From Oligoflexia bacterium (lineage in GTDB: Bacteria; Bdellovibrionota_G; JANQFH01), in contig JANQFH010000008.1 of the NCBI GenBank assembly GCA_028277945.1, forward strand, positions 195,442 to 259,441: 64,000 nt of DNA. Reading direction: 5' to 3'. Position 1 is the stretch's first letter. Each line of letters starts with the position of its first letter. The notes under the pieces are model-generated. The model was not told the origin of the DNA. It made no database searches and saw only the letters and a program-made list of their open reading frames with translations. The position numbers and the translations under genes were made by a program. This document shows positions 3,147-57,901 of this stretch, piece after piece.

Positions 3147-3569
3147 CTAGTTCGCTAGCAGATCTCTCAAAATGGGTAGCGCTCTTTTTATTTGATCAAG
3201 TGTCGTCCAGGTTGGGTTGGCTGCTTTTGGAGATTCATAGCGTTGGTAGGCAGAGACATCTATACCTATTTTATCAGCAACCTTTTGTTGGGTGAGTTTG
3301 CTCTTAAGACGGCTCATCCGAACCAGCATTGCAATTTCCACCCTAGGATGAACCTTTATCCGCACAATATTTTTCCCTCGAACAGACTTCTTCGGCAGTG
3401 GAAAAATGTATTTGGAATCCTCTGGTTCACTTAGATAAAGATTGAGAACTTCTTCCATTCTTTCCTGCAGTTCCTTTTTGGTTTTAGCGTGTGTAAAACA
3501 GCCATCGAGCTCTAGTCCTTGAGCCCAATAGGCATTGCCTTCCTTATGAACTTTGAAATGATAGTGCAT
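3147..3569 (-). CDS. hicB: HicB-family antitoxin with C-terminal helix-turn-helix
   Basis: 140-aa ORF 9 bp downstream of hicA on the same strand; C-terminal HTH-like segment LTQQKVADKIGIDVSAYQRYE. Confidence 0.7.
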   Translation of the reverse strand: MHYHFKVHKEGNAYWAQGLELDGCFTHAKTKKELQERMEEVLNLYLSEPEDSKYIFPLPKKSVRGKNIVRIKVHPRVEIAMLVRMSRLKSKLTQQKVADKIGIDVSAYQRYESPKAANPTWTTLDQIKRALPILRDLLAN

Positions 3570-5736: not shown

Positions 5737-6675
5737 TCAAGAGATAGGGTGAAGCGCTGCATGTCGTGGTTGGCAAGCATAGCCCAGGCCCTGGGCACGC
5801 TTTTTGTTAATTTGAATCTCGTTCTCGGAAAAGAAGAGCTCTTGTAAACCATTGGAGAACGCCTGGCAGACAACTACGGAAAAAAATGGCAAGAGCTTTT
5901 GTTTGGTAAAGACAAATTCAACATGGATACGGCTTTTTCGCAGGCTATTCTCCAGCTCTCTAAGCGAGTGGTTTGGAAGGCTGGATTCATCAAGTTTCTT
6001 AATGTCATAGTCGGCTGGCGAAAAAGGCGGTATTTCTGTACTGCATACGGTCGGCACGACAAAGGGGAGAATATGCCAGAGGTTGCCACGGATATCTGTG
6101 GGTGGAGGGACATTGCGTGAGTCATAGAGGAGCAGAGCCTCTTTTAGTGCTTTATCCTTGGCTCTGGCCAGATCAAACGCCGCACCAAAACCGTAGCAAC
6201 GTTGTTTCTCAGCAGAAGCAATCTCAGTCATGACCACATGAATGGGAAGATCATGGGTGAGATAGAAGAGGCGAACGTTTTTGTCTTGGTTATGATCGAT
6301 TTCCCATAATACTTTGTTATAGAAGACGGATAGCAGAGCTTGATCGCGCTCAGCCAGTTCGATTAGCGCTGCTTGTCTTGCCTCATTACGGTTGAAGTGG
6401 CAACTCAGGCCGTTGGTGGTTGGCTTGACAGGTTTTGCGTAATAGTGATGTCGCTCCACACACTCCATCAGTGCCGTCAGTTGTGCCTGATAGGGATCTA
6501 AGGCGACACCCACGCCAGCTACCCGATCGTCTCGTCCCTGGGCGTAGACACGGTGCCAGGTGAGGTTGTTAAAGCGAATCTCTTTGTGGGCGAGCGTTTT
6601 GACGATTCCCTGCTGCTGTTTAAGAGTACCCGCAATAACGAGGTTAAGTCGAGCTCTCTGCAGCAGTTGTCCCAT
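5737..6675 (-). CDS. short YcaO-like domain protein
   Basis: 312-aa ORF carrying both YcaO signature segments, ALMECVERH and NGLSCHFNRNEARQAALIELAERD (compare E. coli YcaO SALGEYFERLS and SNGMSAGNTRNEARVQGLSEVFERY, recalled from memory); sits between an SBP5 gene and a histidine kinase gene. Confidence 0.6.
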   Translation of the reverse strand: MGQLLQRARLNLVIAGTLKQQQGIVKTLAHKEIRFNNLTWHRVYAQGRDDRVAGVGVALDPYQAQLTALMECVERHHYYAKPVKPTTNGLSCHFNRNEARQAALIELAERDQALLSVFYNKVLWEIDHNQDKNVRLFYLTHDLPIHVVMTEIASAEKQRCYGFGAAFDLARAKDKALKEALLLYDSRNVPPPTDIRGNLWHILPFVVPTVCSTEIPPFSPADYDIKKLDESSLPNHSLRELENSLRKSRIHVEFVFTKQKLLPFFSVVVCQAFSNGLQELFFSENEIQINKKRAQGLGYACQPRHAALHPIS

Positions 6676-8248: not shown

Positions 8249-8458
8249 GTTGTGTACTTCTAACTTAGGTTTTAGTGTTCTCTCTAATAATATGAAGAAC
8301 TTCTGTCAACGGGTACTTTTCATCAGCAACTCAACCAACACAAATGTGTTTCATTTTTAGACAAGTTGTTTCGTAAGACGACACTTAAATGATGGTTCAA
8401 TCTAGCTTCGAGAGCTTGACCCTGTCTATAAAATAAGCAATCATCCTGGGTTAAGAGT

Positions 8459-11987: not shown

Positions 11988-12392
11988 GCTGGATAAAACG
12001 GGACTTTGATCTAGTCTGACCTAAGGTTTCTGGCCCCATACTTGGAAGAGCCACGGCACACTCATAAGAGTGCGGGTATCCTGAGACAAAGTCTTTAAGG
12101 TTGTAACGATTGCAAGGATACTTCTTCATCGTGATATTTGTCGAACTCAAGCAAAGCCCTGCCTTCGCCCTGTAATCAAAACAAGTTGGTCGTATAGTGA
12201 CCATTTTGTTTCCATAAAAGACAATCAGCATTCTATCCAACGTTAGGATCAAGACAAAGTTAATCACTCCACTCCCTTCGTGAAGGCTAACAACTGATTA
12301 CTCTTCGGCTAATAATGGTCTGGCTTTCTTGGCACACAATTTGCTTTTTTTTAAGCCAGCCACGTCACCTTCAATTTGTTATGGGAGGAACT

Positions 12393-12515
12393 ATGAAGGA
12401 CGCAAAAAAGACAAAACGTCAACAGTCTAAGTCGTCAAAAAAAATCTTTTCCCCTATTAAGGACAAGCTGTTAGATACAGCTATGTCGACTATCACATAT
12501 GATGTAACTGGCTAA
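12393..12515 (+). CDS. candidate precursor peptide (40 aa): MKDAKKTKRQQSKSSKKIFSPIKDKLLDTAMSTITYDVTG
   Basis: ATG preceded by GGGAGG at 4-nt spacing; lysine-rich N-terminal part and Ser/Thr-rich C-terminal part; 93 bp upstream of the HExxH and YcaO-like genes. Confidence 0.35.
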   Translation: MKDAKKTKRQQSKSSKKIFSPIKDKLLDTAMSTITYDVTG

Positions 12516-15888: not shown

Positions 15889-15905
15889 ATACTATCATCA
15901 ACAAG

Positions 15906-16033
15906 GCAAGAATTAGGCCAATAGGAATGTCCGGTATTCCAATGGGTTGTAGATAGGTAACGCTTAGGAACAGTATGTCTGATATAGGACGCTCTGTTCA
16001 CCCTGAAGACAGTTTGTTTGTATTGCGAACAAT
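15906..16033. repeat. conserved ~128-bp operon-leader element, copy 1 (pairs with 28018..28145)
   Basis: About 80 percent nucleotide identity to 28018..28145 by eye; internal dyad symmetry (ACAG..GTCTGATATAGGAC..CTGT) and ACAGTTTGTTTG core; lies 17 bp upstream of the MFS start at 15888. Confidence 0.6.
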
Positions 16034-16149
16034 TGAGCCGTTGCCGGTCTGCCATCATGGAACCTCGCATCTGCCTTCAAGGTAAAGGTATACTCATCTC
16101 CTGCATCAGAGAGCAGCCCATTTTCTTGACCACAAACCAACGAACGCAT
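15964..16149 (-). pseudogene. internal fragment of a family-5 SBP gene (deletion remnant)
   Basis: Translation LLSDAGDEYTFTLKADARFHDGRPATAQ matches residues of the SBP5 paralogs (SDAGDEYTFTLNSDARFHDGSPVTAR in 43334..44740), then runs into the leader repeat; no signal peptide and no remainder of the roughly 500-aa protein. Confidence 0.5.
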
Positions 16150-22077: not shown

Positions 22078-22313
22078 TTAATGCCATCGAGCTGAGAGTT
22101 CAACTTTTTAAACAAAGTTCGTACCTTCTGAAACAAACTAGCCACCACAAGAACTGCTGCCACGCGTTTCAAGAACGACCACTTTGTCCATATAAGAAAC
22201 AAACCGTTCACGATCAAATCAGTCGTCGAAAAGCCTTCTTGTTCTTGGTGATGGCTACCGGGACGGTTCTGTGCACCAGCCCATCCGGTCCAGACTTCAC
22301 CGCTCTAAACTCT

Positions 22314-27922: not shown

Positions 27923-28017
27923 TTTCTAGCTCCTGGTTACAGATGGTTTGTAACTTGTTTGTAATTTTGTCAGTTACACATTATCTGGAATCGATAGCAA
28001 TTAATACCTTTTCAAAA

Positions 28018-28145
28018 GCAAGAGTTAGGCCAATGGGAATATCCAATATTTCAATACGTTGTAAATATATGATACTCGGAGACAGTGTGTCTGATATAAG
28101 ACATTCTGTTCACTATGAAGACAGTTTGTTTGTATTTCGAACAAT
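28018..28145. repeat. conserved ~128-bp operon-leader element, copy 2
   Basis: Paralogous to 15906..16033; contains GTCTGATATAAGAC imperfect palindrome and ACAGTTTGTTTG; lies about 95 bp upstream of the candidate precursor ORF at 27922. Confidence 0.6.
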
Positions 28146-28499
28146 AGCCTCAGTAAGGATTGAGGTAGGTTAGGCTCCATTTTTTATTCCTAGGTAACCC
28201 ACTGAAAGTAAACAAAAGGTGCAGTTGACGCAACTTGGGTTGGCACCGATCTGATGCGGCGCGCCCTTATTTGATATATTCTTGTTATTTTCATATAGTT
28301 AGCGAACCTATCTTCTGGTACACTAGTTGCAACTCCTAGAGAGTAGGGTACTAGGAGTTAATAGGGAACTAAAGTTACAAAAACCTCGGTATGAGGTTGC
28401 AATGTAACACGATAATGTATTAAAATTAAATTCTTAATTGAAAAAATAATACGTAACTTCTAGAGCTACGAACGTGTGTCATCAAAGGAGGGGGGCAAC

Positions 28500-29207: not shown

Positions 29208-31196
29208 ATGCCCCGAAGATTTAACTATAACTTTTCTGGCTGGCTGAAGAAGTATTTCATTCCTCTTTTTATCTTCCTATTAAGCCTTACCACGGTCTTC
29301 AGCTTTTACCTTCTCAGTTCTCCCTCTGATCAAAAAACTGTCTTCAGCATTGTAGACCGCTCCCTCTACCACTCCTTTTTATTGCCAACAACTACCCAAG
29401 AGCTCTCTAGCAACGCCCCCATAACTATCGTCGCCATAGACGACGAAGATCTAGAGCGTTATGGCTCTTGGCCTTGGTCACGAGCGCTCTTAGCCAACGG
29501 TATCGAGGCGATTAATCGTTACGATCCAGCCCTGGTTGGGTTCTCTATCCTCATTGATCCTTTGCGCACGGTGGCCCCTTCAGAGAACGCAGCGCTATTC
29601 AAAGAACTCGCTGCCACTAAACACTTGGTTACTGCCTTTAACTTCAACTTCTCTCAACGCTTTCAAATAGGCACTGAAGAAGTCAGCTGGATCGCCAAGG
29701 CCGCTTTAGATGATCGACCAACTACAGAGGTCTCTGTCTTTCCCTATCAGCGTCCATTTAGCTTTCATGCTGCTGCACCTGAAGTCGTCAACGCCTCTGC
29801 CAACATGGGCTTTCTCAGCTACGCCAACTCTAAGGGACTTCTAGTCTACCCAACACTCTCTTACTTTGGCAGTCACTTCTACAAATCCTATCCGTTGGCA
29901 ATCGCGCAGAGTTTTAAACAGCAACAAACCCCAACAAAACTCTCCATCTTACGTAATAGAGAAGGTGTAGAGGGTTTGGAGTTTGGTAACCACACCCTGC
30001 CTACCCTTAACAACGGTACCATTCTATTGAGACCCTACAAGAAGCTCTCCCAAAGGAACGACCGTGCCTTTCCACAACTACGCTTTCGTGATCTTTTAGA
30101 AGGCAAAATACAACCGCACAAGTTGCGCGATAAGATCGTCCTGGTTGATCTAACTGCTTCAGGTTACTCACAGTCCTTCAACGTTCTCGATGGTGGTTTG
30201 GCCTCGAGACCAGTGATCCATGCCACTGCTGTGGCCAACCTGTTGCAAAACGACTTTATCCGTCGCGATGGGCGGGCCACGCTGCTAGAGACCCTATTGA
30301 TTCTCCTGGTAACCCTCTTGGTTTGGTGGTGCTCACGTAACCTCAAGGCAGTTACGGCAGTATTTGCCATCTGCCTTACGATTCCAGCTACCTTGCTCCT
30401 CATTGCATTAGCTGCGATCCACTTTGCCAACCTCTGGTTGCTGATCTCCTATCCATTAGCAGCACTGCTGATCTCCTTTCCCCTGCAGTTTGGCTACAAA
30501 CACTTTGTTGAAGATCGCCAGCGTCGCATAGTCGAGCGAGCACTCACAGGTTACACCTCAAAAACCGTGATGGACCGCTTGATTGAGAGAGGAGAGAGCT
30601 TTTTAACCTTAGGGGGTGAACGCCGTGATCTCACTATCTTGTTGTTCGATATCAAGGGTTTTACCCAACTATCCCACCGTCTGACCCCTGAAGAGACCTT
30701 TAAGCTGTTAAACCACATCTTTAAGCTTACGGATGAGATCATTATCGATCGCTTCAATGGAATGATTGATAAAAAGATGGGTGATGCTTGCATAGCTCTC
30801 TTTGGTCTTGATGGTGGCAAGGAGCATGCTCTGCATGCTGTGCAGGCAGCGCTGGCTATACAGGAGACTTTGTTTGAGCGCTTTGCTGAGCTCTCTCGCT
30901 TGGCTCACAAACAGGAGCTGGGTCCAGGTTGTATCCAGATCCGCGTTGGCATCACCACCGGTACCGTACTCCTTGGCAATGTCGGCTCTGAGCGACACAA
31001 GAACTTTACGGCCGTGGGTGAGATCGTCAACCAATGCCAACGCCTTGAGGCAGCTTGCAGTCTAGGTGAAGTGTTGATCAGTGAGGAGACCTACAGACGT
31101 TTAGGTGACCAAGTCAGGGTTGAGAAGAAGCAAGCACCCGGCAAACGAGAGGAAGAGTCTTATCTCGCTTACCGGGTACTGGGTTTAGCACATTAA
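29208..31196 (+). CDS. CHASE2-sensor adenylate/guanylate cyclase (class III nucleotidyl cyclase)
   Basis: 662-aa ORF; N-terminal TM helix, extracytoplasmic CHASE2-like region, TM cluster, C-terminal cyclase homology domain (ILLFDIKGFT ... MGDACIALFG ... GNVGSERHKNFTAVGEIVN). Confidence 0.8.
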   Translation: MPRRFNYNFSGWLKKYFIPLFIFLLSLTTVFSFYLLSSPSDQKTVFSIVDRSLYHSFLLPTTTQELSSNAPITIVAIDDEDLERYGSWPWSRALLANGIEAINRYDPALVGFSILIDPLRTVAPSENAALFKELAATKHLVTAFNFNFSQRFQIGTEEVSWIAKAALDDRPTTEVSVFPYQRPFSFHAAAPEVVNASANMGFLSYANSKGLLVYPTLSYFGSHFYKSYPLAIAQSFKQQQTPTKLSILRNREGVEGLEFGNHTLPTLNNGTILLRPYKKLSQRNDRAFPQLRFRDLLEGKIQPHKLRDKIVLVDLTASGYSQSFNVLDGGLASRPVIHATAVANLLQNDFIRRDGRATLLETLLILLVTLLVWWCSRNLKAVTAVFAICLTIPATLLLIALAAIHFANLWLLISYPLAALLISFPLQFGYKHFVEDRQRRIVERALTGYTSKTVMDRLIERGESFLTLGGERRDLTILLFDIKGFTQLSHRLTPEETFKLLNHIFKLTDEIIIDRFNGMIDKKMGDACIALFGLDGGKEHALHAVQAALAIQETLFERFAELSRLAHKQELGPGCIQIRVGITTGTVLLGNVGSERHKNFTAVGEIVNQCQRLEAACSLGEVLISEETYRRLGDQVRVEKKQAPGKREEESYLAYRVLGLAH

Positions 31197-40258: not shown

Positions 40259-40895
40259 GATTTACTCCTATTTAGGTTATATCCACCAATTTTTCAAGCT
40301 CTTATTTGATATCCTTAAAGCTTAGGATGCACCCTATCCTAATTTATTTCTGCAAGGAACGTGCTAACAAAAAAGTTAATGATTTTAAAAGATTGGGTTC
40401 TTCAGGAAAGAGTATTGTTGGTTTTTGCAACAATCTAGTGCATAAAACGACAAATTGTATCTCTTACGACCAAGGTTAATAAAAGTTAATAGTGATTGAA
40501 GGGGAGGATTAGTTGTGGAGTGTTAACCCTTGGATGATATTAGACGAATTTTGAAAATCGGTCTTAATCTATTGATAAAAAAGAAACTTTTTGGGAAATT
40601 GGGGTTGATTGCCGACTGACCCAACAAAATACTACAGAAGTCTTAATGTGACAGACGTAACACATGATTCATTTCAGATGCTTATGTTGTAGTGCAGAGT
40701 GTATAGAATTTTCTCAACAAGAAGGCATATATCCTGGGAAAGGCTGCTGGTTATGGGATGTGGCCTTGCCTACTGGTATGGCGACTTACAACACTTACTC
40801 TTTTGTTAATTTCCGTAGGACTAAGAGTGGTTGCGAGGCTGGTGTACAGCATTCTCCCTATTTCAGTGGAGGGCTTGTTTTCAGAGTTTAAACAC

Positions 40896-41000
40896 CTAGT
40901 TCGCTATGAGGCTTTCCATAAACTGGTAGCCTTCGGCAATTGCAGCATCGGTAATTTGGTCCTTCAAACTGTCAACACTTCTCCGTCCCCAAGCACATGA
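40896..41000 (-). pseudogene. 3'-terminal remnant of a paralog of the lipase-like gene 44960..46414
   Basis: Minus-strand translation ...SVDSLKDQITDAAIAEGYQFMESLIAN-stop matches the C-terminus ...GLKDQITDAAITEGRQFMESLIVN-stop of 44960..46414, with a nucleotide match of about 70 bp; no upstream body. Confidence 0.5.
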
Positions 41001-41116: not shown

Positions 41117-42331
41117 ATGTTTAGATTCTATTTCAACTCTTTTCGAGGTTTACCCAGGGCGGGAGTGTTGCTTTCATTGGCTGCATTGATAAACCGTCTT
41201 GGAAGTGTGGTGTTGTTTTTCTTTGCGATCTATTTAACGAAAAATAATTGGAGCGTATTTGATATTGGGAAGGTTCTATCAGCCTATAGTTTTGGCTATG
41301 CAGGTGGGGCTTATCTTGGTGGTCGTCTTAGTGATCGTTATGATAGCCGTTTTATACTTATAATTACACTAATGGGTTCTGGCTTATGTTTCTTCGGACT
41401 TTCTATAGCGGATTCTTTTACACCTGTTATTCTTTTACTTTCTATGGCTGGCATTTTGGAAGGTGCCTTTAAACCAGCATACAATGTTACAATGACCCGA
41501 TGTTGTACCCAGGACGAGTGGTCACGTGCTTATGCACTGTATATGACCACGACTTATTTAGGAGGAGCTATAGCTTCAATGGCAGGTGGATTTTTGTCCA
41601 AATGGAACTTTAGCTACATTTTTTATTTTGATGGTGTAACGTGTATCATTGCAGCGGTTTTTGTGTGTATTGTTTTCGATCGGCTAACCCGTTCAGTGGA
41701 AGCAGAGAAAGAGCAAATCACCGATGAGTTCAGTCTATCTAAAAATACACCTCCATCTTCTCTAGTTATTTGGATAATTTTTGTATCCATGTTTTTTGTC
41801 TATCTTGTTGATCAACAGGAGTCTGGAAGCTATATGATTCATATTACAAAACAGTATGGTATTGATACTCACCAGGTAGGTATGTTGATTGCTTTTGGCT
41901 GTGTACTTATGGCACTGACCACTGTACCTTTGACTCAGTTTTTCAAACGCATTCCGGATTTTATCGCGATGACTTTAGGATCTTTGATTCTTTGCCTGTC
42001 CTTTGGTCTTTTGAATCAGGGTGATAGTTTTGCCTTTCTTTTCTTGTTGATGGCTATGTGGTCCTTGGGCAGCATCATATCATTTCCGACCGTAGTGAGC
42101 CTCATTGGTAAGTACTCAACAAAGGAAAGGGTTGGACATAACATGGGAATTTACCATTTCATCTCTGGCTTAAGCAGAATCGTCGCGCCCTCTCTTGGTA
42201 CCTATGTCTATCAAAACTTGGGTCCGAATATCTTGTGGAGTGCTTGCACTGCTATTGGTGTTTTCAGTGGTGTATCCTTCCTTCTCATTTATCGTTTTAG
42301 TTTAAGGTCAATTCACTCCAGAGAAGCATGA
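41117..42331 (+). CDS. MFS-type transporter
   Basis: About 404-aa polytopic membrane protein, motif-A-like loop GGRLSDRYDSR; ATG at 41117 (track start is TTG at 41114). Confidence 0.7.
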   Translation: MFRFYFNSFRGLPRAGVLLSLAALINRLGSVVLFFFAIYLTKNNWSVFDIGKVLSAYSFGYAGGAYLGGRLSDRYDSRFILIITLMGSGLCFFGLSIADSFTPVILLLSMAGILEGAFKPAYNVTMTRCCTQDEWSRAYALYMTTTYLGGAIASMAGGFLSKWNFSYIFYFDGVTCIIAAVFVCIVFDRLTRSVEAEKEQITDEFSLSKNTPPSSLVIWIIFVSMFFVYLVDQQESGSYMIHITKQYGIDTHQVGMLIAFGCVLMALTTVPLTQFFKRIPDFIAMTLGSLILCLSFGLLNQGDSFAFLFLLMAMWSLGSIISFPTVVSLIGKYSTKERVGHNMGIYHFISGLSRIVAPSLGTYVYQNLGPNILWSACTAIGVFSGVSFLLIYRFSLRSIHSREA

Positions 42332-43131
42332 AACTGATCGAAAGAGATGTAGCTTTAATCAACCATGAATATTACATCGATGGAATTGCTGGCAGTCAGT
42401 ATACATCGAGACAGGTGTTTACGTGCCGAGGTAAACTATTTGTTGTGATTGATGAATTGTGTGTCGATAAGTTACATGATATAGCGGTTAACTACGTTGG
42501 CCAATATAGTACTAAGAGTATAGTGTGTCTTTGCTCACATTTACGTGTTAGACAAATTAGTGAAATGTGGGAAAAGACAAGTTCAAAATTCTATTCGTGG
42601 TTTGGTTTTACGTTTGATCCGGCATTGTCCCGGTTCGACTTTGCTTACTCGAAAAGTGCACTAGAGGGATTCGACGTATCGGTCGGTATGCCAATTAGTA
42701 AGGTTGAAAAGGAAACACTGTTAAAATTGTGGCAAAAACACTATATTGAAAAGGTTCTCCTAGGTTATCCGGAGAAAATAAGGCATCGTTATCTTGAAGA
42801 ATTTCAACAAAGATTGGGTTCTGATAATGAAAATCGGCATACCATAGTTCGGCAGGATAGTGAGATTGTGGCCCATCAGATGCTACGAAGACTTTTTACG
42901 GAGCAAAGAAACTGTTGGGATAAAGAGTTGCACTTTTGGGTCGATGGACAGCTGAATAAGTCGATTCGACGAGAAATTCATCGACGGTTTTGGTATGAAG
43001 TACATGAGGCATCGAGAAAACATATGGTGCTTGGTGGTGTTGCGAGTAATAATATATCGAGTATCAAACATCTCATTAAAAATGGTGGCCGATTACTTTT
43101 TATTCAATACATAGGGTTATCGTCTTACTAG
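42328..43131 (+). CDS. hypothetical protein (cassette enzyme slot)
   Basis: 267-aa ORF whose start overlaps the MFS stop by 4 nt; no recognised motif. Confidence 0.4.
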   Translation: MKLIERDVALINHEYYIDGIAGSQYTSRQVFTCRGKLFVVIDELCVDKLHDIAVNYVGQYSTKSIVCLCSHLRVRQISEMWEKTSSKFYSWFGFTFDPALSRFDFAYSKSALEGFDVSVGMPISKVEKETLLKLWQKHYIEKVLLGYPEKIRHRYLEEFQQRLGSDNENRHTIVRQDSEIVAHQMLRRLFTEQRNCWDKELHFWVDGQLNKSIRREIHRRFWYEVHEASRKHMVLGGVASNNISSIKHLIKNGGRLLFIQYIGLSSY

Positions 43132-43253
43132 TGGTCTGACATATCTTGGTTGTCACCCTACAAACTACACATAGATTGTGTCAAAATTGAACAGTTTGTT
43201 TGAAATGGAGACAGTAACAAACCAAGTAAAAACTAACTGATTTTATGCCTGTG

Positions 43254-43343
43254 TAACCTTGACGGATTTAAGCGATCAGGGTAAGCATTTATAATTAGAC
43301 GAGATTATAAATGAGCTTAGAAAGGGAAGCGCAATGCGGAGTT
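43254..43343. repeat. duplicated promoter/5'-leader element, copy 1 (pairs with 47260..47352)
   Basis: AACCTTGACGGATTTAA ... ATTATAAAT.AGCTT.GAAAGG.AA..GCAATGCGGAGTT shared with 47260..47352, including a TTGACG -35-like box, a purine-rich RBS and the ATG CGG AGT start. Confidence 0.6.
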
Positions 43344-44740
43344 CAAAAATTGGTATGACAAACGTTCCAAGTGACCTTGATCCATTGAAGGCACGATATG
43401 CTTACGACCTGATGATGAACGCATGCGTTTTTTCGCGACTTGTACAGCTTGATGGTAATGGTCAGGTGGTGTCAGAGCTTGCGTCCAGTTGGAAGGTTAG
43501 TGATGCAGGAGATGAGTATACCTTTACCTTGAATTCGGACGCGAGATTTCATGATGGGTCACCAGTAACAGCTCGAGATGTTGTCTATACCTTCGAAAGG
43601 ATCTTGAAGTCAGATCGGCCACCTGCTTCGATTCTTCGTCTAGCATTAGATCCTTCCTTTCGTTCGGATGAGGATTGTCCGGTAAAGGCAGTGAACGATC
43701 GTCAGGTCAAATTTCATTTACCTGGTGCGTACCCGCCATTTCTGTCTCTGCTTTGTAATCCTGTTTTTGGAATAGTTGCTCAGGATAGTGATGGTAAGAT
43801 TGGCTCTGGTCCAATGGTGCTGGAGGCTGACGAGCATAGTAAGACATTGAAGTTTAAACCCTTCCAGGAAGGCGCCGGTCTCGGCGAGTTTTATGTAAAG
43901 CAGATCTCCCGTGACAGCTTACCGGAAGTTATTGCCGAAGATGAACTAGATCTGATTTTTGGGCTCAATTCAATAGATTTTCAGAACGTAATCCGCATAG
44001 ACCCATACAAGGTCGTCAGAGGCCATGATTCGTTTGTCGCTCACTTTTTATGCAATACCAAAAGTCCAGTACTAGATTCTTTAGAGAGGCGACGTAATCT
44101 AAGCTATTTGATCAATTCGCTTTCAGATGAAGTGAGCAATTTAGCAGAATATCAAAAACCGCTGAAAAGTTTTCTACCAAGTGGGTTGTTGTCGCCATCT
44201 TATTACCAGAGAGCAACATCGCCTGTATCCGAGGATGCCTTTAGTGCAAAAAACAGCCAATTCAAAGCCCAACCGCTGCGTATCGTGGTTCAGAAAGGTA
44301 TTTTTTCTCAGAGTTATATGAGTGCGCTAGGTTCTCTAATAGAAAGGCTAGGTATGGTACCTGATATTCAACTAGTGGATTCAGACGCATTATGGAACCG
44401 CTATGCAAAGGATGATTATGATCTTATATCTTTTAGTTACAGTTTGGCGATTCCCGACGATCCAGATGGCTACCTATGGCCCTTCGACAATAAGGAGCTC
44501 GGCATTGATAATCGGTTTCCTATGAGCTCTTTTCTTCAGAAGATTGAAAAGGTCCGTTTTACGTCGAACCAGAAAGAGAGACTCGAGCTCTATGAACGTG
44601 AGTTCAAGCAGTTTGAACAGGAACATTACTTTATTCCAGTGCTTCAACATGACCATCTTATTGCTTTTAAAAACCGGAGCGAAATACCGACTTTAAAGCC
44701 TACATTCCTTTATCGATTGTCTGATTTTATCAGACCTTAG
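43334..44740 (+). CDS. family-5 solute-binding protein lacking a signal peptide (N-terminally truncated paralog)
   Basis: 468-aa ORF aligning to the other SBP5 paralogs from about residue 40 onward (SKIGMTNVPSDLDPLK vs LKIGVSILPQTLDPMK); begins MRSSKIG with no hydrophobic leader. Confidence 0.65.
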   Translation: MRSSKIGMTNVPSDLDPLKARYAYDLMMNACVFSRLVQLDGNGQVVSELASSWKVSDAGDEYTFTLNSDARFHDGSPVTARDVVYTFERILKSDRPPASILRLALDPSFRSDEDCPVKAVNDRQVKFHLPGAYPPFLSLLCNPVFGIVAQDSDGKIGSGPMVLEADEHSKTLKFKPFQEGAGLGEFYVKQISRDSLPEVIAEDELDLIFGLNSIDFQNVIRIDPYKVVRGHDSFVAHFLCNTKSPVLDSLERRRNLSYLINSLSDEVSNLAEYQKPLKSFLPSGLLSPSYYQRATSPVSEDAFSAKNSQFKAQPLRIVVQKGIFSQSYMSALGSLIERLGMVPDIQLVDSDALWNRYAKDDYDLISFSYSLAIPDDPDGYLWPFDNKELGIDNRFPMSSFLQKIEKVRFTSNQKERLELYEREFKQFEQEHYFIPVLQHDHLIAFKNRSEIPTLKPTFLYRLSDFIRP

Positions 44741-44959
44741 CCTAGATCCGGACACAGACATATTTTTTAACGAATTTATTATGGTTCATTTCGTGTAATA
44801 GTGTGTTCGATCCGAGTGTGTACCCTAGGCTTTTTCAAGAATGAGTTTGGTTTTGAGCCGAAAGGGCTCTAGCAGTATATCCAGGGTACCCCGTTTCAGG
44901 CGGCGACGTCCTTTAAGAAAGGCGGAGATGTTTGCTGGCGTTGCATGGGCAAGTAAAGC

Positions 44960-46414
44960 CTAATTCACTATTAGGCTCTCCATAAACTGGCGGCCTTCGG
45001 TAATTGCCGCATCGGTAATTTGATCCTTTAAACCTGTGGCATTCTTTGCCCAACACTCAGGGCTTTTTGAGAATAGGAATCGCTGCTGGTTGGCCTTGAA
45101 CCCATATTGGTGTCCGCCACCTCTGCCGCGCTGGGCGTGACCGTTGTAAGAGGTACAATAAGACATCTCTGCCCATTCTAAATCCTCTCGTCTCGCTTTC
45201 AAAACCAATGCCGGACAATCATCAAACCATTTCAACACGGCATCTGCCTGTTCACTACATTTAAGCAAAAGACCAGAGATAACATCCATAAAAGCCATTC
45301 CTGCCATACACTGACCTACACTCAACTTTTGCGGCCTATGAATATGCCGATGCATCCAATGCCAAACAGGCATTAAAGAAGAGTGTAATCCATTTACCAG
45401 TTCATGCATATAGGCTCGTTCGTATTGTACTACCGGATCTTCAGAATTGATTGATCCGATCAAAAATTCTTCTTTAATCTTTATCTTCATCTCTCCATTG
45501 TTTTCAAAAACCCATTTTTCAAACATCTCGTCTATAGCCGAACGGATCATCAGCATTACAAAATCCCATGCTGAACCACTAAGATAATGCCTTACAAAAT
45601 CGTGCCCCGTACCTGTCGCCTCCTCATCACTCCAGTTTGGCGGTAGTTTTTTTGGCACTGCTCTGATAATTCGATCTTGCTTCAGCGTAATATGCAATGG
45701 CTTGATATAAGGGGTGTCTCCAGGACCTTTTGCTCTAGATAAATCACCCAACTTAGTTCGCTCAAACCGAGTATCAGACACCTTACTTGCTGGCGTTGCC
45801 ACTGAAATCAGCATCATGATACCTTTAAAGCCTCCGTTATCACCCTCGAACATCACCTTTTCATAAGCCTCATTTGAAAAGAAATTCCCTTGTGAGTGAC
45901 TGACTGTTAATGTATTGTAACCTTCCTCCAGTGATTTTCGATAAGCCGCTACTTGTTCAGCAATGTCAGCTCTTCTTTGTCTGTTCACAAATTCGTCAAA
46001 TAACCCCCTAATCGACTTAGAGATGTTCACCAAAAAATCCGGCGCTAGGTGCTGCTGGGAGAACAGACGAAACATGCTCCCTGAATCTAAGACAACGTTT
46101 TTTCTACGCAGATCGTCCCGCTTTTGATCCATTGCCTCGGCAATCTGCAGCAAAACTGTTTGATCGGTGTTGAACGCGATGTTCGGCTCAGCGTCTCGTA
46201 CTAGCCCTTCCACACCTCTCAAAACACGCATTTTCTCCCAAAGCTGAGTCCAAGATTTTTGTGCCTCCTCAAAAGAGGTAAACATTCCATTTGCGAAATA
46301 TAATCTCGATTTCCTCCAACACTCACCTGCACCATAACCTACCTCAGCCACAGTCAGCAGAACGACAAGGATCCCTAGAGCAATGTTCAAATTTCTACTT
46401 GTGTTCAAATTCAC
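44960..46414 (-). CDS. secreted hypothetical protein, possible alpha/beta-hydrolase (lipase-like)
   Basis: 484-aa ORF with signal peptide; SxSxG-type nucleophile-elbow candidate (TVSHSQGNFF); its C-terminus is duplicated as a remnant at 40896..41000. Confidence 0.35.
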   Translation of the reverse strand: MNLNTSRNLNIALGILVVLLTVAEVGYGAGECWRKSRLYFANGMFTSFEEAQKSWTQLWEKMRVLRGVEGLVRDAEPNIAFNTDQTVLLQIAEAMDQKRDDLRRKNVVLDSGSMFRLFSQQHLAPDFLVNISKSIRGLFDEFVNRQRRADIAEQVAAYRKSLEEGYNTLTVSHSQGNFFSNEAYEKVMFEGDNGGFKGIMMLISVATPASKVSDTRFERTKLGDLSRAKGPGDTPYIKPLHITLKQDRIIRAVPKKLPPNWSDEEATGTGHDFVRHYLSGSAWDFVMLMIRSAIDEMFEKWVFENNGEMKIKIKEEFLIGSINSEDPVVQYERAYMHELVNGLHSSLMPVWHWMHRHIHRPQKLSVGQCMAGMAFMDVISGLLLKCSEQADAVLKWFDDCPALVLKARREDLEWAEMSYCTSYNGHAQRGRGGGHQYGFKANQQRFLFSKSPECWAKNATGLKDQITDAAITEGRQFMESLIVN

Positions 46415-46898
46415 AAGGATCTACCTTTGGATCATGCCCGCCAAGCATCTTCCCTGAAAGCTTACCGTTGAACTCTATATAACGCCTCGCTCTTGCTCGT
46501 GTGTTCACTACGAGATCTTCGATTACCTCACCAGCCTCCCCAGCATAAGCCTCCAAATCTACCTTGGCAAAACAAAGCGATGCTCTCGTAATCTGTCCTG
46601 CCACTACCTCAGCGTCTAAGTCGTTTTTAAGGGCATTCTGTAGGGCCTTTGCCTGTTGTCGCATCGCCATCTGTACCATTCTATCTCCGGCATACTCCCT
46701 CTCAATGAGGGCTTCCACGTCATCTCGCACGCCGTCTTGGTTTTTATCTACCCCCTCAATTGTCTCGTCTTCTGCTTTCTTACTACAGGGCCCACATCCA
46801 GCTCCCACCAGGCTTCCTAAGGTAAGACTAAGCAGCAGGACAAAAGAGGCACCGGTCATACGGATTGTCTTCAGAATCAACAACCATAAATTCATCAT
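46395..46898 (-). CDS. probable lipoprotein of unknown function
   Basis: 167-aa ORF; signal peptide with lipobox-like LVGAGC; 3' end overlaps the start of 44960..46414 by 20 nt. Confidence 0.4.
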   Translation of the reverse strand: MMNLWLLILKTIRMTGASFVLLLSLTLGSLVGAGCGPCSKKAEDETIEGVDKNQDGVRDDVEALIEREYAGDRMVQMAMRQQAKALQNALKNDLDAEVVAGQITRASLCFAKVDLEAYAGEAGEVIEDLVVNTRARARRYIEFNGKLSGKMLGGHDPKVDPCEFEHK

Positions 46899-47259
46899 CT
46901 CTATTCTCCTTCTTTAGTTACTACGATTGCGGAAAGTTGTTCTGTTTCCTTAATAACGCAAGAATCGTGCCTATACAGGGTCATATAGGCAATCTCATGA
47001 TTCGGGTTTCTGATGTATCTGATAAAACAAAGATGGATGAAGGAAAATGAAACAACCTGACGTTAATCCAAGCAATATGTATGAAAAGAAAACAACAGCG
47101 TGTATGTCATGCTTGGAGTCTTTTCACTCGGTATAAGTAAAAGAGCCTCGACAGAAACGACGTGGATATGTTTGTGCTGAGTCAATTGTTATTTGCGCAT
47201 CTCCGGATCTGATGAAACAGCGACAAACTGAAAGAAGAACTGACCAACTTTACCATTTA

Positions 47260-47352
47260 TAACCTTGACGGATTTAATCAGTCAAGGTAGTCAATGAACT
47301 AGGATTAGTAGGATTATAAATAAGCTTGGAAAGGAAATTGCAATGCGGAGTT
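47260..47352. repeat. duplicated promoter/5'-leader element, copy 2
   Basis: Matches 43254..43343; here the shared ATG CGG AGT start opens only a 16-codon upstream ORF (MRSLMLQFIGRKYVSR, stop 47391..47393) overlapping the start of the gene at 47380. Confidence 0.6.
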
Positions 47353-47379
47353 TAATGTTGCAGTTTATAGGAAGAAAGT

Positions 47380-50011: not shown

Positions 50012-50306
50012 AGGATGACGGGGGAAAACTAGCAGTCGATCGACAATTTGGAAACCCTATTCCGGATTTTGAGGATATACTAAATGGAAGATTTTGAGAC
50101 ATTGACTCCGCAAATAAATCCTATGGGCGCTATTCGTCCTGTATCCTACGACCAACGGTTGAGGAGGCTGTACGCCGCTATCCTGAGAGTGTCACAATGC
50201 AAAAACTCGTTCAGGCGTTAAAAGCTGCTACTCCGTTCCCCACGCCAGTTCCTAAAAATTAAATCGCTATTCACTGCTTCGGTTGGTGGCAACGCATTAG
50301 GGAAAA

Positions 50307-50426
50307 AATTCCCGATCGGTAATAAATAGGCCTCAAATCTGTCTTATTTGATATAAAATTCCCGATCAGGAATAATTTTCTTGATTTCAGTCTAGGTGTA
50401 GATTAATATTCCCGTACGGGAATATG
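50307..50426. promoter_or_regulatory. three spaced palindromic operator-like sites upstream of hipBA
   Basis: AATTCCCGATCGGTAAT (about 50307..50323), ATTCCCGATCAGGAAT (about 50358..50373) and the perfect 16-bp palindrome ATTCCCGTACGGGAAT (50407..50422) at about 50-bp spacing; the third ends 1 bp before the hipB ATG at 50424. Confidence 0.55.
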
Positions 50427-54767: not shown

Positions 54768-55964
54768 TTAATCTTCTTCTAGTTTGTTGAGAGCTAGTTC
54801 CGCGAACGCGGCATATGTGCCATGGCTGTCTTCGTTAGCGATTTCTGCGTAGAGTAGAAGTGCCTTTGCCTGTTCAAGCTCTGCTGGCAGGACTCTGCCG
54901 CTCTTTTCTAGCTTGCGGATACGCTTTTGGATCCAATAGGAAGGTGGATTCTTTGTGACCAGGCGTCGGTATTTTTTGACCTTTGCTGTCCATTCAACGG
55001 CCAGCTCTTTTGCCTTTTTCGCCTCTTTTTCGCGCAAATCAAGCGACAGTAGGGCATTAAGGAGGATGAGAGAACCTGTTTGCAGGACTTCTAACCTTCG
55101 TAGGGCCTCAAAGTAACGGTAGTGCAGGAGTAAAGCATCTTGAAACTGTTGCTCCAGCTCCACCAATACATTCTCGGCATCGTAGTAGGCGTCAAGACTG
55201 ACTTCTGCATGAGCCAGCCTCTCCTGAAAATCCTTGTACATACCATGGGCTAAAACTTCGGAGGTGTGGTCGAGGTATTTCTCCAAAGTTTCGCCATACT
55301 GCTCGAAAATGCGCCCATAAGCTTGCTCGACTTGTGGCAATGGTTGCCTGAGCTTTTCGCAGTAATCCACCAGAGGGGAGAAACCATGTGATTTGAGCCA
55401 AGAGATTGCACCTGCAAGGGATGGCTTGTAGCCGTATTGCAGATCTTGTGAATATTCGGGAGGAATGGCATCTACAAGTCGGTCGGCGTTGGTTTCGAGG
55501 ACGATGCGACACTGTGCTTCCATGGACGATAACGACCTACGGTATCGTTCCAAGGCCGTGGTGGCTTTATGTTCTTCCTCGGCAAACCCAAAAGCCGCCG
55601 TATGGAGCTTTTGTGTCCACTGCTTTGCCTCTTCAGCCCCTAGACTCTCAACCTCCGGAGGTTGTATTACTTGGACATTCTCAGCAGCTACAGCAATGGT
55701 CCTGAATGCAGACTTCATCACCTCACGATGTTTGACCCCTTGTAGATATGCCCCATTCAAGAAATCGTAGGCTTGCAGGCGGGCCTTTTCATGGACTATC
55801 TTGCGTTTTAGCTCATCTTTTTGCGTCTCAATTTCTCTCCTCTCACGTGCCATTTCTTCGACAGATTGTGCCTGACTAAGAGAAGGAAGTGAGACAAACA
55901 ACAAAAGTAAAAGAGGAAGATTGAACAGGTTTGTCATAACAACGTTACTTTTAATCGCCCTCAA
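54768..55964 (-). CDS. secreted coiled-coil hypothetical protein
   Basis: 398-aa ORF with signal peptide (LFVSLPSLSQAQS); 1-bp gap to the downstream toxin-like gene. Confidence 0.4.
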   Translation of the reverse strand: MRAIKSNVVMTNLFNLPLLLLLFVSLPSLSQAQSVEEMARERREIETQKDELKRKIVHEKARLQAYDFLNGAYLQGVKHREVMKSAFRTIAVAAENVQVIQPPEVESLGAEEAKQWTQKLHTAAFGFAEEEHKATTALERYRRSLSSMEAQCRIVLETNADRLVDAIPPEYSQDLQYGYKPSLAGAISWLKSHGFSPLVDYCEKLRQPLPQVEQAYGRIFEQYGETLEKYLDHTSEVLAHGMYKDFQERLAHAEVSLDAYYDAENVLVELEQQFQDALLLHYRYFEALRRLEVLQTGSLILLNALLSLDLREKEAKKAKELAVEWTAKVKKYRRLVTKNPPSYWIQKRIRKLEKSGRVLPAELEQAKALLLYAEIANEDSHGTYAAFAELALNKLEED

Positions 55965-55969
55965 TAGTG

Positions 55970-57538
55970 CTAATAGCGGCGTCCTACTTGGTCTCCATAT
56001 CTATCTAGTATAGGAGTTTGCGTCCTGTACTTTTTATCGCCTTCGATAGCCCCAATAGCGGCGTCCTCCTTGGCCTCCATACACTTTGTATAGAGCAGAT
56101 CGCGTCCTGTATCTTTTAAGGCGCGAATAAACTTTTGCAGGTGTTTGGTTTCATCTTGCACTTCAAAACTCTTGGAAATCAGCATGGCATGCAGCTCTGT
56201 TAAGCGAGTGAATGCTCTGCCTATCTCGTCTTCCGGGCCGACTGTATCTGTAGGTTCCTGCATAAGGCTGTAAACGGCGATCAGGCGCTCATAGTCGCTT
56301 AGCGACAATTCTTCGTCTTCATAGAGCTCTTCTACTGTCTTCCGAAACGCTTTCGGGCGCTTCTCGATCTTAGCTAGCGTCCATTCCTGCAGATTCCCTA
56401 CTTTTTTGAGTAACAACAGCCCTTCGAGTGTTGCGGCTGTAAGTTCTAACTCTTGGAAGGTATCGTCGTACTCCTCATCGTTTATAGCGCGGAGACGATC
56501 GATGATTCTTTTTAGCGAGGATTCGGATTTCTTGAAATAGGCTTTGAATATCCTGCGTGCCTCAAAATTGACCATTAACGCTCTTTCAAGATCTTCTTTG
56601 TCTGATTTAATTAGCGTTTCGAGCCAACTCAGGCGATTTTCTGCATCACCAAGGTTTGTGCAAGCTTCGAGCACAGAGTCTTCATAAACAAGGAGATCGT
56701 AACCAACGAGGTTAAGGGAGTAACTACGAAGCATCCCAACAGGCATTTTTATCTTTATTGTTGTGTTTCCCAGCAGGTCTAACTGCTGTCTCATGCTGGA
56801 CCTTGCTGTGTAGGTCCATCGCTGTGGTCCTCTTTCTTGACACCAAAATCCGTCTTTAGGATTATGATGGTGTGCGTGACGCCCATTTAAATTGCAGTAA
56901 CACCAGCCACTGTCACCCGTGTAGGTGGGTTTTCCATAGCGCCAATGATCCTCGGGAAAGACGATTTCAACACGGTGCATACGGTATAGAGAGTTTAACT
57001 TGCTTAAAGGGGTGTCACCGAGAAATGCATTGGTCGTCTGTTCGGTGCGAAATTTATTCCAGTCTATGACTGCGAGTGGAAGAGGAAAGTTTTCAATATC
57101 ATACCTCTTATAAGATGCTGGAGGATCTAACGCAGACGAGAAAGGTCGATAGCTGACGGTTGTTTGGGGAAATGGATATTTGTATTTAAACAGTGTTTCG
57201 TCATTTTGTTTATAATAGAGCTTAAAATAGACGTTGCTTCCTAAGAGCTGCTGCTCCAGCTCTCTATGTACTTCGGAATCATCAATTCCTTCGCCTTTCG
57301 CACCCATCTTGCCAAATAGCCGAACTTTGTAGGTGGCGGGATAGAGATATGATTCTCTTTCGTCAATATCCTCAAAATCTGAAAGGAATAATCCCAAGGA
57401 AGGAAGGCCTTGCTTCATCGCATAGCTGTTAACGTAGTAAATTTCACTCTTAGCCCAGGAGATTGGTGGAAAAATAATTAGGACCATGGTTAGAAGCAGA
57501 AAATATAGCCAGGGGATATGTGTTACTCGGTTTGACAT
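55970..57538 (-). CDS. membrane-anchored hypothetical protein
   Basis: 522-aa ORF; N-terminal TM/signal segment; His-rich patch HAHHHNPKDGFWC; first gene of a same-strand string ending at 51914. Confidence 0.4.
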   Translation of the reverse strand: MSNRVTHIPWLYFLLLTMVLIIFPPISWAKSEIYYVNSYAMKQGLPSLGLFLSDFEDIDERESYLYPATYKVRLFGKMGAKGEGIDDSEVHRELEQQLLGSNVYFKLYYKQNDETLFKYKYPFPQTTVSYRPFSSALDPPASYKRYDIENFPLPLAVIDWNKFRTEQTTNAFLGDTPLSKLNSLYRMHRVEIVFPEDHWRYGKPTYTGDSGWCYCNLNGRHAHHHNPKDGFWCQERGPQRWTYTARSSMRQQLDLLGNTTIKIKMPVGMLRSYSLNLVGYDLLVYEDSVLEACTNLGDAENRLSWLETLIKSDKEDLERALMVNFEARRIFKAYFKKSESSLKRIIDRLRAINDEEYDDTFQELELTAATLEGLLLLKKVGNLQEWTLAKIEKRPKAFRKTVEELYEDEELSLSDYERLIAVYSLMQEPTDTVGPEDEIGRAFTRLTELHAMLISKSFEVQDETKHLQKFIRALKDTGRDLLYTKCMEAKEDAAIGAIEGDKKYRTQTPILDRYGDQVGRRY

Positions 57539-57901
57539 GTGGCACTTTCCATGTGCAAAGAAAATGCCACTGTCATTTCGAAACGCCGATCTCTGCTAAA
57601 TTACAACAGAGATGTTCATTGAAAATTGAAGCTTAAGATCTATGCATATTTTTTTCAGTTGTTGGTTCCTCGTACAGGCTATTGCATATCTGGGCAACTT
57701 GTCTCTTCAGCAGGCAATGACAGATGGGAGAATCACTGAAAGGTGGACGGGATCGGCTGTTCATGTCTAACCTTATGATATAACAGGGATAAACGACTAA
57801 ACTGCAAGGCACAGGAGTTGCAAAAGTTAGATCAAAGAACTTGACGGAGCCCCAAAAAGTATATACTATTAAATATATACTATAATCTCGTCCTGAGTAA
57901 G

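Follow-up and report, generated by a model that had tools for sequence, protein, structure and literature searches.

The subject of this work is a 12-mer, ACAGTTTGTTTG, in a 64,000-nt stretch of DNA (hereafter the window) from contig JANQFH010000008.1 of an Oligoflexia bacterium (assembly GCA_028277945.1, lineage Bdellovibrionota_G). Judging from its architecture, the 12-mer is probably the central junction of two abutting 19-bp sites in an enhancer array of a sigma-54 activator.

There are three exact copies of the 12-mer, all on the forward strand (16009-16020, 28121-28132 and 43191-43202). The first two lie inside a 21-nt block, TGAAGACAGTTTGTTTGTATT, which is the longest stretch without a mismatch in a 131-nt direct repeat (copy A, 15903-16033; copy B, 28015-28145; 80% identical, no indels), and the third, which we call site 3 together with its surroundings, lies in the 202-nt gap between a 267-aa open reading frame (ORF, 42328-43131) and an SBP_bac_5 (SBP5) gene (43334-44740), with 131 nt between the copy and the ATG. 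This agrees with the first-pass annotation, which had reported a third occurrence outside the repeat, about 130 bp 5' of the SBP5 gene. The same annotation held that such a match is unlikely by chance, which is not strong as a sole argument: the expected number of extra copies is 0.011-0.021 for this single word, and 0.11-0.20 for any of the ten 12-mers that the two repeat copies have in common (probability of at least one, 0.11-0.18), while another core word, TGAAGACAGTTT, also has a third match, at 29335 within a cyclase coding region. For these reasons, the recurrence taken alone is weakly significant, i.e., suggestive.

The 131-nt repeat has no third copy at site 3, as homology beyond the 12-mer fails in every comparison made. 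Local (Smith-Waterman) alignment returns only the 12-mer, with a score of 24 that 5% of random windows reach; an nhmmer profile of the repeat finds site 3 at E = 11 (rank 10); a MAFFT alignment of site 3 with the repeat gives no flank identity, and the best ungapped 31-nt matches between the two equal the shuffle maxima. De novo searches for words and mismatch words also gave nothing above shuffled maxima.

The N11 dyad around the 12-mer

The 12-mer can be parsed as the right arm of one dyad (ACAG), a linker T, the left arm of a second dyad (TTGT) and then TTG. A four-arm layout of 39 nt, YTGT-N11-ACAG-T-TTGT-N11-ACAR, is common to site 3 and both copies of the repeat, with identical spacing and unrelated spacers:

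43176-43214, site 3 tandem dyads, TTGT-gtcaaaattga-ACAG-t-TTGT-ttgaaatggag-ACAG
43176-43194, site 3 dyad 1, TTGT-gtcaaaattga-ACAG
43196-43214, site 3 dyad 2, TTGT-ttgaaatggag-ACAG, 20 nt after dyad 1
15994-16032, copy A tandem dyads, CTGT-tcaccctgaag-ACAG-t-TTGT-ttgtattgcga-ACAA
28106-28144, copy B tandem dyads, arms as in copy A

All three substitutions that distinguish copies A and B inside the 39-nt array are in spacers. The intergenic frequencies of YTGT and ACAR are 0.0094 and 0.0117, respectively, and the probability of finding both outer arms of site 3, which lie beyond the 12-mer, in the register of the repeat is about 1.1e-4. With the match confined to the dyad arms and no relation between the spacers, site 3 bears, as read from the sequence, the signature of selection on a protein-binding site and not of common descent.

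The relaxed word CAGTTTGTTT (at most one mismatch) has 7 matches in 4,157 nt of cassette-upstream DNA, compared with 0.69 in dinucleotide shuffles, 0.6 for permutations of the same composition, and 5 matches in 56 kb of coding DNA. This enrichment led to the observation of the right arm and the N11 spacing, and since the aligned sites share a second box, ACA(A/G), at a fixed offset, they were read as inverted repeats TTGT-N11-ACAA. The window contains 13 perfect YTGT-N11-ACAR dyads, of which 8 are non-redundant intergenic ones and 3 are coding. When the spacer of YTGT-Nx-ACAR was varied in intergenic DNA (x = 3-25), N11 gave 8 matches, while the other spacings gave a mean of 0.82 and a maximum of 3; in coding DNA there is no excess (3 at N11, mean 3.8 at other spacings). 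Dinucleotide shuffles of the intergenic DNA (2,000) averaged 0.63 matches and never exceeded 5. The excess of TGT-Nx-ACA inverted repeats is thus spacing-specific and confined to non-coding DNA, which is expected of a sigma-54 enhancer.

Because the N11 spacing had already been noticed before testing, an unbiased enumeration was run on non-redundant intergenic DNA with 128 arms (a purine or pyrimidine plus a 3-mer) and 23 spacings, i.e., 2,944 tests. YTGT-N11-ACAR ranks first (8 found, 0.8 expected; P = 2.5e-6, approx. 0.007 corrected), and in second place comes RACA-N3-TGTY, the pattern formed where two dyads abut. When the arms were cut to 3 nt, the two best patterns among 1,600 tested were TGT-N11-ACA and ACA-N3-TGT. 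The dyads are also phased: the offsets between pairs of N11 dyads (at most one mismatch) are 20 nt in three cases and 40 nt in two, while control spacings never repeat an offset. Multiple phased sites, here in arrays spanning 39-59 nt, are likewise expected of a sigma-54 enhancer.

The first-pass annotation proposed a shared regulator-binding site, and this part of it gains support from the four-arm register (P of about 1e-4) and from the first rank of the dyad in the unbiased intergenic search, while the local hairpin that it described does not hold (see below).

Several other readings of the 12-mer and the repeat were considered and rejected. DNA uptake sequences are expected about once per kb genome-wide, genes included. 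This idea arose from a weak ComP_DUS match, below the Pfam cutoff, in the pilin-like gene at 28476; the 12-mer occurs only three times in 64 kb, always between genes. A coding relic in the repeat was rejected because the A/B differences by codon position (17, 15 and 8) are not significant and each frame is stopped in one copy or the other. An attC-like GTTAGGC inside the repeat is actually the -24 region on the opposite strand. At 29335-29347 (+), inside the CHASE2-cyclase gene and 1.2 kb from copy B, the repeat core recurs in inverted form over 13 nt (AAACTGTCTTCAG), which was judged to be chance; an invertible segment 28116-29346 was dropped in the absence of a recombinase, and also because the cyclase gene would be broken. 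A metagenome scan with the 20-nt repeat core returned six unrelated gut contigs, where the word is a gene start (MKTVCLYF).

Sigma-54-type elements and the 131-nt repeat

Besides the tandem dyads given above, the window holds the following dyads and arrays:

12206-12224, single perfect dyad TTGT-N11-ACAA, 5' of the YcaO cassette
22184-22202, single perfect dyad, 5' of the 385-aa/MbnB-like+RES operon
40415-40473, phased array, perfect dyad at 40415-40433 (ATTGTTG-N5-CAACAAT) and a 1-mismatch dyad 40 nt off
57659-57717, phased array, perfect dyad and a 1-mismatch dyad 40 nt off
8346-8384, weaker tandem pair (8346/8366), GTGT-N11-ACAA, linker g, TTGT-N11-ACAC, one mismatch each, 5' of the SBP5 gene 8248 to 6689; no -24/-12 element was found for it
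46865-46883, perfect dyad TTGT-N11-ACAA, 15-33 nt inside the 5' end of a 167-aa gene

A 17-aa ORF (22191 to 22138) overlaps the dyad at 22184-22202 and is probably spurious.

Enhancers of the NifA type are TGT-N10-ACA, located at least 100 bp upstream of the start site (PMC2820453), and for this reason the window was scanned for TGGCAC-N5-TTGCW, with the following results:

12330-12345 (+), -24/-12 element TGGCACACAATTTGCT, perfect consensus, 106 nt from the 12206 dyad
22086 to 22071 (-), -24/-12-like TGGCATTAAATGTGCT, 98 nt from the 22184 dyad, overlapping the mechanically called ATG 22077
28032 to 28017 (-), -24/-12-like TGGCCTAACTCTTGCT, 74 nt from the copy B dyads, pointing at a small ORF (27922 to 27818) and the 277aa-MFS-SBP5-kinase operon
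15920 to 15905 (-), -24/-12-like TGGCCTAATTCTTGCC, far end of copy A, homologue of TGGCCTAACTCTTGCT, facing the MFS gene 15888 to 14620
28316-28331 (+), -24/-12-like TGGTACACTAGTTGCA, 1 mismatch, 172 nt away on the other side of the copy B dyads, facing the pilin-like gene 28476
40366 to 40351 (-), TAGCACGTTCCTTGCA, 1 mismatch, AG for GG, 49 nt from the 40415 array, pointing at a small ORF (40258 to 40175) and the DUF4135-like/SBP5/kinase operon
57569 to 57554 (-), TGGCATTTTCTTTGCA, 1 mismatch, 90 nt from the 57659 array, facing a 522-aa gene
57807-57822 (+), AGGCACAGGAGTTGCA, 1 mismatch, 90 nt from the 57659 array on the opposite side
46957-46972 (-), -24/-12-type element among the intergenic matches

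Five of the 8 arrays have an outward-pointing -24/-12 match (at most two mismatches) 30-140 nt away, at observed distances of 49-106 nt, whereas random placement in intergenic DNA gives a mean of 1.24 such arrays (P = 0.003). Intergenic matches with both GG and GC intact and at most two mismatches number 8 (non-redundant) vs. 0.9 in shuffles, and all 8 face the adjacent downstream gene. A gene-facing, predicted -24/-12 promoter roughly 50-200 bp away, as a sigma-54 enhancer would have, is therefore found for five of the arrays and not at site 3. The limits of the 131-nt repeat also follow these elements: one end lies 1 nt outside the distal dyad arm (16032) and the other 2 nt outside the -12 element (15905), and since the repeat ends where the arm and the element end, the repeat is a complete, portable module of predicted enhancer plus promoter in front of two different operons.

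In the mechanism that we propose, YTGT-N11-ACAR (better TTGTT-N9-RACAR) would be the predicted site for dimers of one transcription activator, and adjacent dimers on 20-nt-phased dyads would cooperate. Single sites and arrays 49-106 nt (172 nt once) 5' of -24/-12 promoters would correspond to the upstream activator sequence layout of an NtrC/NifA-type enhancer-binding protein, with the putative target promoters facing the peptide-modification, SBP5-kinase and MFS operons and the pilin-like operon. Site 3 would be an independent instance of the enhancer, with conserved arms and unrelated spacers. As sigma-54 enhancer-binding proteins mostly belong to the response regulators, the partner-less histidine kinases of the cassettes could have their missing partner in this activator.

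The predicted promoters call for an annotation correction, as the ATG 22077 sits in a -24/-12 element, and the first third of a 66-aa ORF (12315-12515) overlaps the predicted promoter at 12330. Small ORFs lie behind predicted promoters and before modification-enzyme genes, and are candidate precursor peptides:

27922 to 27818 (-), candidate precursor ORF, MAKSNESKKTVSFNFSFQSHRVLGAKLASIPTGS
40258 to 40175 (-), candidate precursor ORF, MKKRRREYIDLDKLEKIVVIRGVTVGI
47047-47136 (+), candidate precursor ORF, MKQPDVNPSNMYEKKTTACMSCLESFHSV
12381-12515 (+), candidate precursor ORF, MGGTMKDAKK...TITYDVTG

At site 3 itself, the enhancer arms are intact at 16 of 16 positions. A leader/promoter module at 43208-43346 (+) is duplicated at 47218-47355, the duplicated homology beginning inside dyad 2, so that the 12-mer is just outside, 5 nt from the module start. 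The duplicated module carries the two following sequences:

43318-43333 (+), degenerate -24/-12-like TAGAAAGGGAAGCGCA, 5 mismatches, GG lost and TT changed to GC, 104 nt 3' of site 3
47327-47342 (+), TGGAAAGGAAATTGCA, homologue of TAGAAAGGGAAGCGCA in the 47-kb copy, facing a 122-aa gene

A weak -24/-12 candidate, TGGCCCATCAGATGCT, lies upstream at 42869, within the 267-aa gene, and a sigma-70-like TTGTCA-16-TAGATT overlaps dyad 1 of site 3. The SBP5 unit at 43334 looks like a degenerating cassette, because the gene (43334-44740, +) is without a signal peptide, its N terminus is 8-37 residues shorter than in its relatives, its first four codons belong to the duplicated module, and no histidine kinase follows downstream. 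As a control site for the SBP5 gene, site 3 is not obviously working, since the expected downstream -24/-12 element is degenerate. With the GG of that element gone, site 3 could be a relic or orphan enhancer preceding a degenerate SBP5 cassette; alternatively, its target could be a promoter that was not recognised.

Comparison with known systems and other explanations

Like NifA and NtrC sites, the short TGT...ACA inverted repeats of the window are often tandem and lie about 100 bp 5' of GG-N10-GC promoters. NtrC-type enhancers are tandem dyads that work in either orientation and may serve divergent promoters, and arrays of the window are similarly flanked on both sides at 28017-28331 and 57554-57822. 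Unlike in NifA sites, the spacing is N11 and not N10 (there are zero intergenic YTGT-N10-ACAR matches), and compared with sigma-54 systems, adjacent dyads are 20 nt apart here and site 3 is without an intact promoter.

Several observations weigh against a sigma-54 enhancer. No Sigma54_activat, rpoN or response-regulator gene was found among the window ORFs of at least 100 aa that were scanned, and the cassettes of two distant relatives (L009 and L010; 28-30% protein identity) are without N11 dyads. There is no intact -24/-12 element within 140 nt of site 3, and several predicted leaders would be very short (from copy A to the start codon of the MFS gene, and from 57554 to the ATG at 57538). 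The dyad arms are short, and when strictly perfect 4-nt palindromic arms are required the dyad drops to third place among 5,888 tests (P = 4.6e-4) and is no longer significant once P is corrected. The N11 spacing was seen ahead of the unbiased test, and the counts cover 64 kb of one genome.

Sites of LysR-type regulators lie at about -65/-35 of sigma-70 promoters, usually beside a divergent LysR gene. The dyads could be operators of such a conventional sigma-70-type regulator (a LysR-type tetramer, or a cooperative dimeric repressor), with the -24/-12 matches being incidental, and we consider this unlikely, although it survives better than the explanations that follow. LysR-type regulators occupy 50-60 bp over two neighbouring sites, which have conserved flanks, variable centres and a T-N11-A core (PMC8407307), and the recognition site of the LysR-family PsrA of Serratia is TGT-N11-ACA (PMC8754645). 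The window dyads resemble these boxes in the TGT-N11-ACA skeleton, the conserved arms, the variable centres and the two adjacent sites over 40-60 bp; TTGT-N11-ACAA contains the T-N11-A core (the inner T and A being 11 nt apart), tandem arrays of 39-59 nt do occur, and TTGTCA-16-TAGATT over dyad 1 of site 3 would place that dyad in a repressor-like position. Unlike LysR boxes, however, the sites lie 49-106 nt 5' of -24/-12 elements far beyond chance, and so near -100 and not at the -65/-35 position that LysR boxes have at sigma-70 promoters. No conserved sigma-70 promoter lies beside the arrays, and no LysR gene (HTH_1, LysR_substrate) was found in the window.

Coincidence, i.e., a T/G-rich, low-complexity 12-mer recurring in AT-rich intergenic DNA with a dyad fitted to it afterwards, seems less likely still. 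It would agree with the modest expectation (E = 0.11-0.20), the recurrence of another core word in a gene, the lack of extended homology (local alignment score, nhmmer E value and 31-nt matches), and the de novo words and perfect 4-nt arms, which are not significant. Against this stand largely independent signals, namely the spacing- and intergenic-specific excess, the 20/40-nt phasing, the four-arm register, the link to -24/-12 elements and the boundaries of the repeat.

It is very improbable that site 3 descends from the 131-nt repeat as a decayed third copy, or that it is microhomology at a cassette recombination junction: the region is indeed a mosaic (duplications of 84-87% identity) and 5 nt separate the 12-mer from the start of the module duplicated at 47218, but the sequence on either side of the 12-mer shows no homology to the repeat, the match is limited to the dyad arms, and the window holds no recombinase or transposase gene.

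We give equally little credence to an action of the site as RNA or single-stranded DNA (a terminator, an attenuator or a 5' stabiliser), or as direct repeats of the LytTR type. The hairpin in which the 12-mer was first reported to lie, with a 17-nt spacer, is GTTTGTT-N15-AACAAAC (43194-43200 and 43216-43222); this is a perfect 7-bp dyad, and the repeat copies also pair TTGTTTG with CGAACAA. Folded as DNA, however, it reaches -5 kcal/mol (z = -0.53), 63 of 200 shuffles fold equally well, seven-bp dyads with 3-20 nt spacers cover approx. 3.5% of intergenic positions, and the spacing of the stem varies by context; the hairpin is neither significant nor the relevant symmetry. The hairpin is missing from the centroid fold of the whole intergenic RNA, zero terminator-like sites and no T tract were found at site 3, and a search of Rfam gave no match. 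Folding of the 131-nt repeat gave no significant structure on either strand (z-scores -1.1 to +0.6), and the two compensatory pairs in a two-sequence consensus fold of its copies are too few to build on.

LytTR sites are two 9-11-nt repeats with 11-13-nt spacers (PMC4847170), lengths that ACAGTTTGT-N11-ACAGTAACA fits, and the AgrA 9-mer is ACAGTTAAG (PMC11039898). The resemblance to LytTR pairs of peptide quorum-sensing loci thus includes a 9-nt box starting with ACAGTT, an 11-nt spacer and peptide-related kinase cassettes (PMC4847170, PMC11039898). Unlike LytTR sites, the units of the window are inverted repeats in which only the central box is complete, and the kinases are HisKA plus HATPase_c; the second 9-mer, ACAGTAACA, fits a LytTR-like pattern at 5 of 8 positions, pair scans are not enriched, and no LytTR gene was found in the window. 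Since the outer boxes are only half boxes, dyads describe the data better than LytTR repeats.

The gene island and its possible regulon

Five SBP_bac_5 genes or relics occur in the window, together with three HisKA/HATPase_c kinases that have no response regulator next to them, MFS transporters, and enzymes of the peptide-modification type (two YcaO, an MbnB/TglH-like protein fused to RES, and a DUF4135/LanM-N-like protein). The cassette proteins cannot be aligned with each other, and for this reason a non-coding repeat of 80% identity stands out. The only HTH gene adjoining a kinase is HicB-like: the HTH_3 protein at 3147-3569 (-), 3' of the kinase at 3907, has, as read from its sequence, a HicB-like N terminus (MHYHFKVHKEG...) and resembles an antitoxin more than the cassette regulator.

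The closest SBP5 homologues (28-30% identity) are in metagenome-assembled genomes of Bdellovibrio and Pseudobdellovibrio, and a search with the kinase as query found no further paralogues from the same genome. In one of the two relatives mentioned above, a Bdellovibrio sp. assembly (L009), a -24/-12-like AGGCATGAAAATTGCT at 6490-6505 (+) lies 51 nt before the first small ORF of the homologous cassette (small ORF, DUF4135-like, SBP5, kinase). As this cassette has the element but no N11 dyad, sigma-54 control may be older than the present enhancer motif.

Relics and segmental duplications (I1, D2, D5 and D9; 84-87% identity) make the region a mosaic. A truncated SBP5 relic abuts copy A (16035-16149, -); it matches codons 56-80 of the SBP5 gene at 43334 (43501-43574, +) with 84% identity, and shares with them an identical block of 33 nt (16076-16108 and 43501-43533). 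A public Logan contig, L002, which equals window positions 16079-43520, ends in this 33-nt block, and its other end apparently does likewise, by coordinate arithmetic. A 75-nt relic (40895-40969 and 44959-45033), 87% identical to the 3' end of a 484-aa gene, lies 5' of the MFS gene 41114; taken with the 43208/47218 duplication, this relic is suggestive of an ancient segmental duplication of some 4 kb that was subsequently overwritten.

Other repeats were also noted. A second exact 12-mer, CTTATTTGATAT (+), occurs three times (28266, 40301 and 50343), always between genes and with no flanking homology; it contains a -35-like TTGATA, as in TTGATA-17-TATAGT (28271-28299) and in TTGATA-17-AATAAT before an HTH/HipA-like pair. 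Direct repeats AAAATTCCCGATC(G/A)G at 50296-50375, 5' of the HTH_19/HipA-like pair (50424, 50651), are probably antitoxin operators. Where the 398-aa and 522-aa genes meet there is a 54-nt direct repeat (55946-55999 and 56028-56081), whose copies are 85% identical and 82 nt apart.

If the proposed sigma-54 enhancer is correct, the N11 motif would define a candidate regulon that ties together at least five otherwise unrelated operons (modification enzymes, MFS exporters, SBP/kinase sensors and a pilin-like gene) in an organism whose nearest sequenced relatives share only about 30% protein identity. The enhancer-promoter module would explain why a non-coding segment of 131 nt is 80% conserved beside flanking genes that cannot be aligned, and the motif would give precise, mutable sites with predicted transcription starts. 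Only tentatively, and with low confidence, can it be further proposed that one NtrC-type response regulator, encoded elsewhere and phosphorylated by the several partner-less SBP5-coupled kinases, would bind the TTGT-N11-ACAA arrays and so drive sigma-54 transcription of all of the cassettes (YcaO, MbnB/TglH-like and LanM-N-like), the exporters and the type IV pilin-like operon. If true, this would represent a many-sensors-to-one-output network of peptide signalling in an uncultivated member of the Bdellovibrionota.

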